From Candidatus Moraniibacteriota bacterium (GTDB lineage Bacteria; Patescibacteriota; Minisyncoccia; Moranbacterales; UBA9337): a stretch of 60,604 nt of DNA. This document shows, one piece after another, positions 47,822 to 52,043 of the stretch (the stretch's first letter is position 1; every line of letters starts with the position of its first letter). The notes below the pieces were generated by a model. The model was given only the letters and a program-made list of their open reading frames with translations. It did no database searches and was not told the origin of the DNA. The stretch lies in contig JALSQF010000003.1 in assembly GCA_026985555.1 (NCBI GenBank), positions 1 through 60,604 of the forward strand. The letters are read 5' to 3'. Both the position numbers and the translations under genes were made by a program.

Positions 47822-47892
47822 CGGGGTGTAGTATAATGGTAGTACGCACGCATGGGGTGCGTGTAGCCCGAGTTCAATTCTCGGCATCCCGA
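47822..47892 (+). tRNA. tRNA-Pro(GGG)
   Basis: Acceptor stem CGGGGTG/CATCCCG with C1-G72 and A73; anticodon arm CACGC-ATGGGGT-GCGTG; T-loop TTCAATT; followed by CTA, so CCA is not encoded. Confidence 0.95.
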
Positions 47893-47952
47893 CTAAATGT
47901 AACTTTACGAGCCTTACTTTTCGTCTCAAAGCTCGTAAAGTTGCATTTGGTC
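47891..47952 (+). repeat. 22-bp stem-loop overlapping the tRNA 3' end
   Basis: gactaaatgtaactttacgagc ... gctcgtaaagttgcatttggtc; the only two non-Watson-Crick pairs are both T-G. Confidence 0.8.
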
Positions 47953-48058
47953 ACAATTACTGAACGCCGCTCGAACTTTCTTTGAACGGCAATCTGTTGC
48001 GCCCTAACGGGCGCAGAATGCGCTTAGAGTCTATGTCTAGCCGATCAAACGACTGAGT

Positions 48059-48143
48059 AAAACAGAAAAATTTTCTCTACATTTCTTAATTTTTTCGCGC
48101 GCTTTTTTTTTCTTTTAAAAGGAAAAGAAAATTTTTCTGTTTT
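48059..48143. repeat. Perfect 18-bp inverted repeat with 49-nt spacer
   Basis: aaaacagaaaaattttct (48059-76) and agaaaatttttctgtttt (48126-43). Confidence 0.75.
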
Positions 48144-48167
48144 GATATTCTGCTAGCCACATTTTAT

Positions 48168-48196
48168 TTGACTAAATCGCAAATAATTCATATAAT
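48168..48196 (+). promoter_or_regulatory. Sigma70 promoter of the island operon
   Basis: TTGACT, 17 nt, TATAAT. Confidence 0.75.
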
Positions 48197-48197
48197 A

Positions 48198-48247
48198 ACT
48201 ATAGATAATAAAAAGTATTACTATATCTTTATAATAGTAAAACTATA
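48198..48247 (+). promoter_or_regulatory. Tandem operator candidates for the XRE regulator
   Basis: ACTATA at 48198, 48220 and 48242 (22-bp period); ACTAT-N9-AAAGT followed by ACTAT-N9-ATAGT. Confidence 0.55.
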
Positions 48248-48252
48248 CGACA

Positions 48253-48462
48253 ATGTCAAAGCAAAAATCTACAATTGGGGATAATATAAAGAAATACCGA
48301 AACAAGCTTGGTATTTCTCAAGATGTGCTTTCAAAAAGAGCCAATCTTGCCTTTCATACTATCGCAAAGATTGAGGCGGGTTCAACGCCCGATCCCCGCA
48401 TTGAAACCGTTAAAAAGATTGCGGACGCTTTAGGTGTTGCGCTTGATGATTTAATGAAATAA
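48253..48462 (+). CDS. XRE/Cro-C1 helix-turn-helix regulator (controller-protein-like)
   Basis: IGDNIKKYRNKLGISQDVLS...TIAKIEAG...PRIETVKKIADALGV. Confidence 0.92.
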   Translation: MSKQKSTIGDNIKKYRNKLGISQDVLSKRANLAFHTIAKIEAGSTPDPRIETVKKIADALGVALDDLMK

Positions 48463-48464
48463 AT

Positions 48465-49559
48465 ATGCCAAACAAAAATCTTACAAACGCAAAAAAAGTA
48501 AAAAATGACGAGTTTTATACTCAATATCAAGACATTCAAAAAGAAGTTGAGGCATATTTAGAATATAACCCAGATACATTTCGTGATCAGACAGTGTATG
48601 CCAACTGCGATGATCCGTATGAAAGTAATTTCTTTCGCTATTTTGTGCTCAATTTTAATAAACTTGGATTAAAAAAACTAATTACCACCAGTTATAAACC
48701 TTCCCCTATAGCCAATACACAACTGACATTATTTGGGGACAATAAAACCTCTAAACAAACAAAAGGCCGTCCTAAAGTAACTGCTAATAAATTTATCATT
48801 ACTGAAGTAGGAGATTTTAATAAAGATGGAGAATTTGATTTACACGATATAGCTGAGCAACTAAAAGCAAATAAAAATAATGAATGGGCACCACTCAAAG
48901 AGAATGGCGATTTTAGAAGTGATGAATGTGTAGAGCTTTTGAAACAATCCGATATTGTGGTTACCAATCCGCCATTTTCTCTTTTTCGCGAATATGTTAA
49001 ACAACTTTTTGATTACAACAAAAATTTTTTGATAATCGGCAGTATGAACGCGATTACCTATAAAGAAATATTTCCTTTAATTAAAGATAATAAAATGTGG
49101 TTGGGAAACGGGTTTAGTGGAGGAAACGCATATTTTTATACGCCAAATGTCCGAGAGTTTGCTTCTGGAGTATACGACCCCAAAACAGGTTTAGTGAAAT
49201 TCCGCAATGTGCATTGGTTTACTAACCTTGACCATGGCCGACGCCACCAGCCATTGTCACTGATGACCATGGCGGACAACCTTAAATTTAATAAAAAAAT
49301 TCAAAAGAATCCTAACAGTTATAAAAAATATGATAACTACGATGCGATTGAAGTGCCTTATACAGAAGCAATCCCAAGCGACTATGATGGAGTAATGGGT
49401 GTGCCGATTAGTTTTTTAGATAAATATAATCCGGATCAGTTTGAGATTTTAGGACTCGATGACCACAGACTACAACCTCCGCATTGGAGGGGAAGAGGAC
49501 CGGCAATAAATGGTAAGTGTGTATATAGAAGAGTAATTATAAAACATAAGAAAAAATAA
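48465..49559 (+). CDS. EcoRI-family N6-adenine DNA methyltransferase
   Basis: KNDEFYTQY.DI..E, VYANCDDP..SNF..YF, GDFRS.EC, VVTNPPFSLFREY, YDNYDAIEV, G.MGVPISFLDKYNP.QFEI. Confidence 0.92.
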   Translation: MPNKNLTNAKKVKNDEFYTQYQDIQKEVEAYLEYNPDTFRDQTVYANCDDPYESNFFRYFVLNFNKLGLKKLITTSYKPSPIANTQLTLFGDNKTSKQTKGRPKVTANKFIITEVGDFNKDGEFDLHDIAEQLKANKNNEWAPLKENGDFRSDECVELLKQSDIVVTNPPFSLFREYVKQLFDYNKNFLIIGSMNAITYKEIFPLIKDNKMWLGNGFSGGNAYFYTPNVREFASGVYDPKTGLVKFRNVHWFTNLDHGRRHQPLSLMTMADNLKFNKKIQKNPNSYKKYDNYDAIEVPYTEAIPSDYDGVMGVPISFLDKYNPDQFEILGLDDHRLQPPHWRGRGPAINGKCVYRRVIIKHKKK

Positions 49560-49593
49560 AAGGTTAGAGAAATTAATTTCTTGGAAATAAATT

Positions 49594-50502
49594 ATGCAAG
49601 ATACTATTTTCACAATAGAGCTTCCTCTTATTGAAACAAACGAGGAGTTGGAAAAGGTAAAAAAACTATATCCGAAATATGATCCATATTTTATTACTAG
49701 TGGTTGTTTTAAAGAAAGACGCGAAAAATTTAATAAACTGTGGGGAAAATACAAATCTTATGCAGATAGGCATTTTTTAAATCAAATCCGAACCAATTTT
49801 CATCAAAGAACATGGGAAATGTATGTCGGTAATGTGCTTTTAAAAAAGAACTTGATAATACAATCAGAAAATGAAGGGCCGGATTTTGTGATTGATAAAA
49901 CTGCTTATATTGAGTGCGTTGCGCCGACAAAGGGCGATCCAAATAAACCCGATTCAGTTCCAGAAATGTTTATTGCCACAACGCCAGAAGAAATCCGTGT
50001 CCAAGATGTGCCAGTTGATAAAATGATTTTGAGGATTACGCAAGCCATAAAAGATAAAGCATTGAATCAATATAAAAATTGGAAAAATAAAGAATGGTTT
50101 AATCCAAAAATGCCGTTTATTATTGCTATAAATACTGGCGACTTGTCACATGCTGAAGATCCAAGTATGCCAAATGTATTGAAAGCATTGTTCGGTTTTC
50201 AATTTATGCAGATCAATATTAAAACAGGCGAAACCAATTTTTCATACAGAAATAAAGTTAAGAAAACAAATAACGAATCCGTATCGGTAAATTATTTTAC
50301 CAATGAAAATCTTAGTTTTGTAAGTGGAGTTTTATTTTCAAATAAAACAGTTTTAAATCATCCTAAAAATATAGGTGAGGATTGTATTTTTGTTAATAAT
50401 CCATTTGCCAAAAATCCAGTTAAGAAATCATTTGTTAAACTATTCAAAAACTGGACGGCAAGCAAAGAAAATAACAAAATAAGCTTAAAGAAGAATTATT
50501 AA
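49594..50502 (+). CDS. Putative PD-(D/E)XK-fold nuclease (uncharacterised)
   Basis: WEMYVG...EGPDF...AYIEC pattern; later KALNQY and FIIAIN; no start-to-end family recognised. Confidence 0.55.
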   Translation: MQDTIFTIELPLIETNEELEKVKKLYPKYDPYFITSGCFKERREKFNKLWGKYKSYADRHFLNQIRTNFHQRTWEMYVGNVLLKKNLIIQSENEGPDFVIDKTAYIECVAPTKGDPNKPDSVPEMFIATTPEEIRVQDVPVDKMILRITQAIKDKALNQYKNWKNKEWFNPKMPFIIAINTGDLSHAEDPSMPNVLKALFGFQFMQINIKTGETNFSYRNKVKKTNNESVSVNYFTNENLSFVSGVLFSNKTVLNHPKNIGEDCIFVNNPFAKNPVKKSFVKLFKNWTASKENNKISLKKNY

Positions 50503-50534
50503 TAACTACATAATATTTGATTAAGTAAAATAAT

Positions 50535-51704
50535 ATGAAGACAACTTTAAAAACCAACATTACTGTTAAAGATATTTGTGCAGGATTTGTTTATAGCGAA
50601 CTTGAAGGCAAGGGTTTATTTGGTTTATCCGGCAAACTCACCATCCAACCGGAATATCAGCGTAACTACATTTATGCGTCTGATGGGGGTAAAAGAGAGC
50701 AAGCCGTTATTGAATCAGTTTTAAATGGCTATCCGCTGGGGCTTATTTATTTTAACAAAGTAGGCAAAGATCAATTTGAAGTTTTGGACGGGCAACAGCG
50801 TATTACCAGTTTGGGGCGATTTGTGACTGATAAATTTGCAATTAAAGATGAAAATGGCAATGAACAATACTTTTCCGGTATGGCGCAAGACAAGCAGAAA
50901 AAGATTTTAGAAACAACGCTTTTGATTTACGAATGCGAAGGCACGGAAAGTGAAATAAAAGAATGGTTTAAAACCATTAATATTGTCGGTGTTCCGCTGA
51001 ACGAGCAGGAGTTGCTTAACGCTGTTTACTCTGGGCCGTTTGTTACCAAAGGAAAAGAGTGGTTTAGCAATAGTCAAAATGCCAATATTCAAAAATGGAG
51101 CGCCTACATAAAAGGGAGTGTCAATCGCCAGGATTTTTGGCACACAGCGCTTGATTGGGTAAGCAAAGGAAAAATAGGTGAATATATGAGCGCGCATAGG
51201 TATGATAACAATATTGACGAAGTAAAAAATTATTTTGACACGGTGATTGATTGGGCTTCTGCCATCTTTGAAGATGTGGAAAGCGAAATGCGCGGGTTGG
51301 AATGGGGCCGGTTATACGAAACATATCACAAAAACTCTTATGACCCCAAAAAAGTTTCGGCCGAAATGCACAGACTTTATGCTGATCCGTATGTAAAAAA
51401 CCGCCGAGGTATTTTTGAGTATATATTAGGCGGTTCTCGCGATACAAGATTGCTTGATGTTCGTGTTTTTGATGAAGCAACCAAAAGAGCTGTTTATGCC
51501 AAACAAACAGACGAAGCCAAAAAGAAAAAAATATCAAATTGTCCGCTGTGTGCTATTAGTCATGACGCCAACAAGAGTAAAATCTGGCAATTCAACGAAA
51601 TGGACGCCGATCATGTATCGGCATGGAGCAAGGGAGGCGCGACTTCGGCAAAGAATTGCCAGATGTTGTGCAAGACTCATAATCGCGCAAAAGGTAATCG
51701 GTAA
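50535..51704 (+). CDS. DUF262 (ParB/Srx-like NTPase) plus HNH endonuclease, GmrSD/SspE-related
   Basis: [32 protein letters not shown]; C-terminal CPLC...DADH...WSKGG.T...NCQMLC..HN..KG. Confidence 0.92.
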
Positions 51705-52043
51705 ATAAAAAAACCAGTAGAAACGCTTCCAAATATTTATGGTGTACCATCTAAAGGTTGGCAGAAACATTTTTATCCTAATAATCGTTTTACTCTATCA
51801 CTGAAAGATATTGTAAAGTTAGACAAGGATCGTCTTAATAAGCACCCAAAAATCCAATCTATTAAAAATAATTTTCCTTATCAAACTATGTTAACGGGTA
51901 TAATTTCTGATAATAAAATTATTTTGGTAGAAGGTATGCATCGTTCCCTGGCTATTCTTTTAATGAAACCTAAAAAGGTAAATAGTAATATAGTTATTGC
52001 TTTAACAAAAATAGAAGATGATTTTCAAAAACCATTAGGGTAA
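51705..52043 (+). pseudogene. Start-less gene remnant (112 codons) with a ParB/Srx-like ILVEGMHR motif
   Basis: Open frame IKKPVETLPNIYG...IILVEGMHRSLAI...FQKPLG* begins right after the DUF262-HNH stop, in the same frame; AT-rich host-like composition; absent from the ORF track. Confidence 0.65.

Follow-up and report, generated by a model that had tools for sequence, protein, structure and literature searches.

A conserved pair of EcoRI-family methyltransferase and DUF262-HNH nuclease, with accessory genes, in an acquired island of Candidatus Moraniibacteriota

Candidatus Moraniibacteriota bacterium (assembly GCA_026985555.1) carries on contig JALSQF010000003.1 a compact island of four open reading frames (ORFs) that lie on the plus strand 3' of a tRNA-Pro gene. 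The stretch analysed here, hereafter called the window, comprises 60,604 nucleotides (nt) of this contig. The four ORFs encode an XRE-family helix-turn-helix (HTH) protein, an EcoRI-family DNA methyltransferase (MTase), a third protein referred to as ORF3, and a nuclease (ORF4) that joins a DUF262 nucleoside triphosphatase (NTPase) domain to an HNH domain, and they are separated by spacers of 2, 34, and 32 nt. The original prediction had described four tightly spaced co-oriented genes beside a tRNA, of a composition distinct from the host and devoid of an EcoRI-like restriction enzyme, and had read them as a non-canonical restriction-modification (R-M) system. The arrangement can now be given with exact coordinates (Table 1) and the tRNA is confirmed as tRNA-Pro. 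We find that the MTase and the nuclease are a conserved functional two-gene core and not chance neighbours. The pair is an uncharacterised and very widespread R-M family, to which the window copy adds a probable controller (C) protein and PD-T7-5-like cargo.

Table 1. Coordinates of the genes and sequence features of the island, given as positions in the window
Feature	Position	Strand	Remarks
tRNA-Pro(GGG)	47822-47893	+	ARAGORN; Rfam RF00005, 58.8 bits; island starts just past the tRNA 3' end
Structured spacer	47894-48160	+	four strong hairpins, GC-richer; inverted repeats I4 and I2; holds TCGA site 47971
Sigma-70-type promoter, near-consensus	48168-48196	+	TTGACT-17-TATAAT, 11/12 matches; region conserved with L032
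Palindrome ATAGT-AAA-ACTAT, candidate C-box/operator	48234-48246	+	7 nt 5' of XRE start; read from the sequence
XRE-family HTH protein, 69 aa	48253-48462	+	HTH_3 5e-14; PADLOC Control_protein 1e-8; 2-nt gap to MTase
EcoRI-family N6-adenine DNA MTase, 364 aa	48465-49559	+	PF13651 EcoRI_methylase 2.4e-124, full length; NPPF at residues 168-171
MTase variable module A, residues ~217-250	49113-49214	+	column conservation 0.39, indels; corresponds to M.EcoRI residues ~186-223
MTase variable module B, residues ~331-355, C-terminal	49455-49529	+	column conservation 0.44-0.51, indels to ~57 columns; holds TCGA site 49456
ORF3, PD-T7-5/PD-T7-1-like, 302 aa	49594-50502	+	in the MTase-nuclease junction
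Restriction nuclease (ORF4), 389 aa	50535-51704	+	ParB-type DUF262 NTPase, helical middle domain, zinc-ribbon HNH

The two core proteins are readily placed by sequence profiles. The MTase aligns with M.EcoRI nearly end to end at ~43% identity (tblastn) and matches the PADLOC profile MTase_II (2.6e-103). The N-terminal part of the nuclease belongs to GmrSD_N/DUF262 (PF03235, 1.9e-20) and holds the motifs QR, DGQQR (residues 85-89), and FxxxN; within DGQQR, D85, G86, and R89 are invariant and Q87 and Q88 nearly so. Its C-terminus is an HNH domain (PF01844, 2.8e-6) with a zinc ribbon of the form CxxC...CxxxC. At the level of PADLOC the protein corresponds to the restriction endonuclease (REase) profile REase_II (PDLC03418, 2.5e-86), with side matches to NsnA, PD-T4-2_A, and HEC-05/06. 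The Pfam and PADLOC assignments thus agree that the partner of the MTase is a protein with DUF262 (DGQQR) and HNH, and no R.EcoRI-type endonuclease was found among the window genes. A profile search of the PDB with the nuclease retrieved an HNH endonuclease (4h9d, 1e-6) and BrxU (7p9k, 8e-4), the latter over ~37 N-terminal residues only, and PDB sequence searches with the MTase, ORF3, and the nuclease gave no match. The AlphaFold model of the nuclease is poor, with a predicted local distance difference test score (pLDDT) of 65 and a predicted template modelling score (pTM) of 0.44.

Relatives of the nuclease were compared at 80 genome loci and at 63 IMG/VR contigs that encode it, the latter forming a viral set independent of the former. 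The MTase gene lies directly upstream of the nuclease gene on the same strand at ~73 of the 80 genome loci, most of the exceptions being contig ends, and at 57 of the 63 viral loci. The distance between the two genes is -4 to +12 nt in ~45 of 62 complete genome pairs, and such spacing indicates translational coupling. EcoRI-family MTases also precede nuclease relatives that share 49% and 37% identity with the window protein, and the partnership is therefore old. The link between MTase and DUF262-HNH protein in the original prediction is upheld, and so is the non-canonical character of the system, in which both the nuclease and the gene order differ from those of EcoRI. Clustering of the nuclease homologues at 90% identity gives more than 8000 clusters, and 75-90% identity is seen across very distant phyla including archaea. 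They range over bacteria of the candidate phyla radiation (CPR), Bacteroidota, Firmicutes, Actinobacteria, Proteobacteria, archaea, plasmids, and phages. Plasmids of cultured bacteria carry the pair as well, among them megaplasmids of E. faecium and plasmids of Moraxella, lactobacilli, Pediococcus, Apilactobacillus, Rhodococcus, and Arthrobacter. The cultured Flavobacterium phage vB_FspS_laban6-1 (L093:2781-5143) has a complete pair beside its tail genes, with a nuclease that is 75% identical.

Some sources label homologues of the nuclease 'McrA', and the NCBI/PGAP label is "DUF262 domain-containing protein" only. No paper describing or characterising the MTase/DUF262-HNH pairing was found in the literature, in keeping with the original prediction that such pairs lack functional characterisation, and a recent survey of DUF262 systems covers GmrSD, SspE, PD-T4-2, Dazbog, and Menshen only (PMC12065111). 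A PADLOC run, which had been proposed as a check, did return defence-type matches for all four genes, yet it scored the pair as ordinary Type II, namely MTase_II plus REase_II. Because Type II profiles fit both genes, the output of detection tools would be 'RM type II'. The REBASE enzyme behind PDLC03418 was not identified in literature searches. We considered the AATT enzymes Sse9I and MluCI as the source family and rejected them, since both are classed with other nucleases: Sse9I is a predicted PD-(D/E)XK enzyme according to Orlowski and Bujnicki (PMC2441816), and Pingoud et al. grouped MluCI with EcoRI and MunI (PMC4081073).

The profile result brings in the most conventional explanation, an ordinary Type IIP system in which the nuclease reads one fixed site, all the MTases protect that same site, and any variable blocks are surface decoration or targets of phage inhibitors. 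The REase_II profile is matched over its full length, the tight order of MTase and nuclease is that of a classic operon with a C-protein in some copies, and the wider nuclease family diverges to 35% identity (441 representatives at E<=1e-30) as other REase families do. In addition, nuclease identity correlates with the identity of the MTase core (Spearman 0.44). The variation of the MTase itself speaks against a single fixed site.

Two blocks of the MTase, modules A and B, are flanked by highly conserved sequence and occur as discrete, mutually unrelated types of 25-66 aa with sharp boundaries. Identity for A and B is 0.80 and 0.71 within a type versus 0.21 and 0.20 between types. These types reassort combinatorially: 109 pairs, genome and viral pooled, display 17 A types and 36 B types in 70 combinations, and the B type of the window is common only to L010. 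The nuclease has a mean column conservation of 0.86, lacks indels and variable blocks alike, and is 70-100% identical among the loci, values that are inflated by the choice of loci for similarity to the nuclease. Its identity barely tracks the modules, being 0.72 where both modules differ versus 0.80 where both match in the same 109 pairs. The comparison of near-identical nucleases is unaffected by the choice of loci. Where two nucleases are at least 93% identical (13 pairs), A differs in 7 and B in 8. Between L071 and L072 the nuclease has changed at 1 residue out of 386, and their MTases are ~98% identical outside the two blocks while both blocks have been replaced. Likewise the nucleases of L136, L137, and L138 exceed 99% identity, and each of the three loci has a module set of its own.

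M.EcoRI, whose target is GAATTC, offers a point of reference for these modules. The copy on the genuine EcoRI plasmid (L095) has a common A type, at 78% identity, and another, short B. The M.EcoRI residues C223, W225, and H235, which have been implicated in catalysis or DNA recognition, fall at or just after block A. The position of the modules and their shuffling pattern suggest that A and B are likely DNA-reading modules that set the target of the MTase. For the Type IIP explanation, at least 17 A and 36 B types that are unrelated and reassorted are hard to square with one specificity. A second point against it is that M.EcoRI has one A type in common with the family and shows no relation to the rest. 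Host DNA gives no support to a fixed site either: none of the 4-mer or 6-mer palindromes shows consistent depletion over the 80 host loci (observed/expected ratio, O/E, 0.94 for AATT and 0.83 for CAATTG).

A further line of evidence comes from nucleases that stand without the MTase. At L030:3405-5623 RhuM and an intact nuclease are found within a menaquinone operon, and at L134:2127-4173 and L141:476-2522 a prophage Bro-N gene and the nuclease lie by a CI-like repressor and an integrase. The DNA of L134 is 99.96% identical to that of L136 from Bro-N onward, and only L136 has the MTase. In these MTase-less copies the gene immediately 5' of the nuclease is cargo of the Bro-N/RhuM type. Intact nucleases of this sort count against a Type IIP enzyme, which we regard on balance as an unlikely account that nonetheless deserves serious weight. 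The constancy of the nuclease, the shuffling of the MTase modules, and the existence of MTase-less copies together make it likely that the nuclease does not itself read the target sequence; it probably lacks a sequence specificity matching that of its MTase.

The explanation that we consider best, and for which the case seems to us about evenly balanced, is an MTase-aimed nuclease cassette with an N6-methyladenine (m6A) self mark, an NTPase switch, and two accessories, XRE and ORF3. The MTase would mark host adenines at a target set by modules A and B, and the coupled downstream nuclease would attack DNA without the mark. For this purpose the MTase may recruit or license the nuclease, much as Res is directed by Mod in Type III systems and HsdR by HsdS/M in those of Type I. 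The DUF262 NTPase would be the switch that licenses HNH cleavage, as DUF262 NTPases license the nucleases of SspE, GmrSD, and BrxU (PMC13251355, PMC10952713, PMC12065111), and the helical middle domain may bind DNA. In the window the putative XRE controller would head the operon from the strong promoter with its operator-like palindrome.

The constant nuclease with its variable MTases would also suit a different mechanism, in which the DUF262/helical part reads m6A in any context, as SspE reads its mark. NTP hydrolysis on marked DNA would restrain the HNH domain, unmarked DNA would be nicked or cut, and the MTase and the nuclease would need no contact. This is near to what the original prediction proposed, and it draws on the finding that DUF262 in SspE, GmrSD, and BrxU senses modification and gates an HNH-type nuclease by NTP hydrolysis (PMC13251355, PMC10952713, PMC12065111). 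We consider it improbable for several reasons. If any m6A meant self, there would be no selection for diversifying and shuffling the modules, and phages with Dam-type methylation would escape. Nuclease copies without an MTase would be expected to be toxic. Moreover, the HNH domain here is PF01844 and not DUF1524, and the likeness to BrxU is confined to the short N-terminal segment mentioned above.

The same domain architecture could alternatively be that of a GmrSD-like Type IV enzyme, with modified phage DNA as the substrate of DUF262-HNH and the methylase as no more than a companion gene. The side matches to NsnA, PD-T4-2_A, and HEC-05/06 and the 'McrA' labels on homologues are in line with this idea. 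It is nevertheless very improbable in our judgment, as the nuclease is almost universally paired in an operon with one MTase family, often with overlapping stop and start codons and down to 37% identity, and it has no DUF1524 domain. Moreover, a nuclease that depends on methylation would be self-destructive beside a coupled methylase unless the two specificities were disjoint.

Several observations weigh against the MTase-aimed cassette. The PADLOC REase_II profile fits the nuclease from one end to the other (profile positions 7-371 of 372), and REBASE may already list a relative among the ordinary, sequence-specific enzymes of Type II. The model of the nuclease being poor, its domain picture depends on sequence profiles, and part of its conservation reflects how the loci were chosen. 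The MTase-less copies come from metagenome-assembled genomes (MAGs) and viral contigs, so that a methylase elsewhere in the genome or chimeric contigs are possible. The role of the modules in setting the target is drawn from their position and shuffling pattern, and host DNA shows no signal of target-site avoidance. With these points in mind we propose, tentatively and with rather less than even confidence, that the family is a distinct and widespread R-M class: a specificity-free nuclease of ParB-type NTP switch and HNH domain, aimed by a monomeric MTase with reassorted modules, comparable to Type I and III systems without the helicase motor and with a junction that serves as a docking slot for defence genes.

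If the nuclease is aimed by its MTase, this would be a new way of coupling restriction to modification and a new role for the ParB-type NTPase fold. It would also mean that a compact two-gene system exists whose target is perhaps reprogrammable by swapping two short MTase modules. Independent of mechanism there is an annotation gap, given that a nuclease family of this size is named only by its DUF262 domain and that no functional study of it was found.

The two other genes of the island are optional. An XRE gene accompanies the pair at 3 of the 80 genome loci and at 0 of the 63 viral loci. The protein is an optional accessory and probably the C protein of the R-M operon. It resembles Type II R-M C proteins in being a small XRE HTH protein that heads the operon, in its match to the PADLOC profile Control_protein, and in having a palindrome beside a strong promoter; it differs from them in that it precedes the MTase and not the REase, and in that few family members have it. 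The palindrome, conserved in L032 (~2965-2980), is a candidate controller-protein operator. The block ATAGTAAAACTATACGA is identical in L032, where the XRE protein is 84% identical.

ORF3 occupies the junction between the MTase and nuclease genes. It has no Pfam match, and its PADLOC matches are partial: PD-T7-5 at 4.2e-19 (profile positions 35-235 of 346) and PD-T7-1 at 2.2e-17 (150-355 of 452). PD-T7-5 and PD-T7-1 are single-gene anti-phage systems of E. coli, of the PD-(D/E)XK class (Vassallo et al. 2022, tabulated in PMC10952713). ORF3 is like them in matching both profiles over ~200 residues and in having the invariant P96, D97, and E107, and unlike them in that the match is partial and that it belongs to its own family of ~240 members, all unnamed and mostly from CPR bacteria. 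Among 39 homologues E75 is invariant as well, and the canonical ExK lysine is lacking. The AlphaFold2 model (pLDDT 86) has no significant match in the PDB, and the best weak ones (E>0.1), namely McrC, NhoI, PvuII, Hjc, and HamA, are PD-(D/E)XK nucleases. ORF3 is thus probably a PD-(D/E)XK nuclease, and its genomic context is in line with a putative single-gene anti-phage role.

The tight co-oriented spacing in the window invites the thought of one four-gene system that would need ORF3 as a second effector or as the specificity partner of the nuclease. Its homologue adjoins the pair in L023 (75% identity). There, however, it lies downstream of the nuclease and not between MTase and nuclease, and it is missing from 79 of 80 genome loci and from all 63 viral ones. 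ORF3 homologues are otherwise found alone among housekeeping genes (L081, L083), beside Bro-N (L087), or between an HSDR_N_2/N6_Mtase/Eco57I-type enzyme and its Methylase_S subunit (L085:898-5292, L089:3969-8282). In the last case the passenger is lodged at a junction inside another R-M architecture, one unrelated to the first. Being rare with the pair and found alone or in other R-M types, ORF3 is therefore independent defence-type cargo, and a required four-gene unit appears extremely unlikely. Accordingly, the parts of the original prediction that did not hold are the unity of the four genes, in view of how seldom XRE and ORF3 accompany the pair, and ORF3 as its added second effector.

ORF3 is one occupant of a recurrent cargo slot. 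Inserts of ~0.07-3.1 kb separate the MTase and nuclease genes in 17 of 62 genome pairs and in ~11 of 47 viral pairs (viral gaps of at least 68 nt). In relatives of the window locus the inserts include PD-Lambda-5 A and B, OLD-family ATPase-nucleases with or without DUF2130, PIN_8, and a Schlafen/AlbA_2 protein. RhuM (PDC-S05) is present at the junction in at least six loci, and Bro-N (PDC-S13), Shedu, and genes of no named family were also found. The slot illustrates the spread of small defence genes, ORF3 among them, and a gene cluster of this sort is not to be taken for one multi-gene system.

The cassette has been acquired horizontally, inserted after tRNA-Pro, and the acquisition is recent. 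Its flanks are housekeeping in nature: rmlC and a DUF456 gene lie on the side of the tRNA, and rmlD, greA, and lysS lie past the opposite end. The GC content of the island is 0.33-0.41 (48000-51500) versus ~0.25-0.29 in the flanks and ~0.27 in the host, which upholds the distinct composition noted at the outset. The tetranucleotide TCGA is almost missing from the window (2 observed versus 53 expected, O/E 0.04), and both sites, 47971 and 49456, are within the island. TCGA has been purged from the host and is still present in the island, so that together with the differing GC content the two sites mark the island as a recent arrival. In 80 other genomes with the same cassette the frequency of TCGA is normal, and the depletion in the window belongs to the host and has no connection with the cassette. 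GTAC is depleted in the window as well (27 observed versus 69 expected). The loss of TCGA and GTAC points to strong restriction pressure of TaqI type (TCGA) and RsaI type (GTAC) on this genome, presumably from another system.

The right end of the conserved cassette was placed at the nuclease stop codon because L163, a contig from another metagenome, begins there, at window position 51700. A second contig, L165, ends at window ~47799, and the two contigs, assembled from other samples, break at both edges of the island. Such breaks fit a cassette that, in those communities, varies or is present in several copies. A repeat search at the island found no att-type direct repeat of the tRNA end. No empty-site strain was found, as identical flanking genes were always accompanied by the island or located at contig breaks. 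The structured spacer between the tRNA and the promoter has a fold energy of -82 kcal/mol (z = -6.0 versus shuffles), and in Rfam the tRNA is the sole match; it could be an array of terminators or insulators or a remnant of the integration site. Directly past the nuclease stop, the same reading frame stays open for another 113 codons (51705-52043, '...LVEGMHRSLAIL...'), with its only ATG at 51888 (51 aa) and without a family match; it was assigned to the host backbone because L163 carries it.

The relation of the cassette to known systems may be considered for three groups. With EcoRI it shares an MTase that is a homologue over the full length, with NPPF and the other conserved blocks, and M.EcoRI in turn has one of the commonest A types of the family. 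The differences are that the window nuclease is DUF262-HNH and not the PD-(D/E)XK enzyme R.EcoRI, that the MTase gene comes before the nuclease gene whereas EcoRI (L095) has the reverse order, and that module A of the window is of another type and module B only weakly EcoRI-like. With GmrSD, BrxU, and SspE the nuclease shares the plan of an N-terminal ParB-type DUF262 NTPase with its QR, DGQQR, and FxxxN motifs, after which come a helical region and a His-Me finger nuclease, and it has the weak profile match to BrxU. In contrast to these, its C-terminus is a zinc-ribbon HNH domain of PF01844, a search for DUF1524 gave no match, and the protein has ~390 aa versus ~590-750 aa. Those systems are stand-alone or Ssp/Dnd-linked, while the window nuclease is obligately tied to an m6A methylase, with an EcoRI-family MTase upstream at the great majority of genome and viral loci. 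No ssp or dnd genes were found among the window neighbours (XRE, MTase, ORF3, rmlC, the DUF456 gene, rmlD) or at the junctions of the related loci inspected.

By profile and synteny the pair would enter Type II, having an MTase with its catalytic motif and an adjoining gene that fits an REase profile. Its evolutionary pattern is closest to that of Type III or Type I. Sharp-edged combinatorial reassortment is known from the subunits that set specificity in these two types, where the nuclease subunit is conserved because it does not read the sequence. The pair similarly combines a conserved nuclease subunit with shuffled recognition modules in the modification subunit, and its junction holds embedded defence cargo as hsd loci do. 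Unlike these systems it has no helicase or translocase motor and no separate S subunit, its MTase is of the monomeric EcoRI type, and a complex of MTase and nuclease is a proposal. The family thus follows the pattern of Type III and Type I while being a member of neither.

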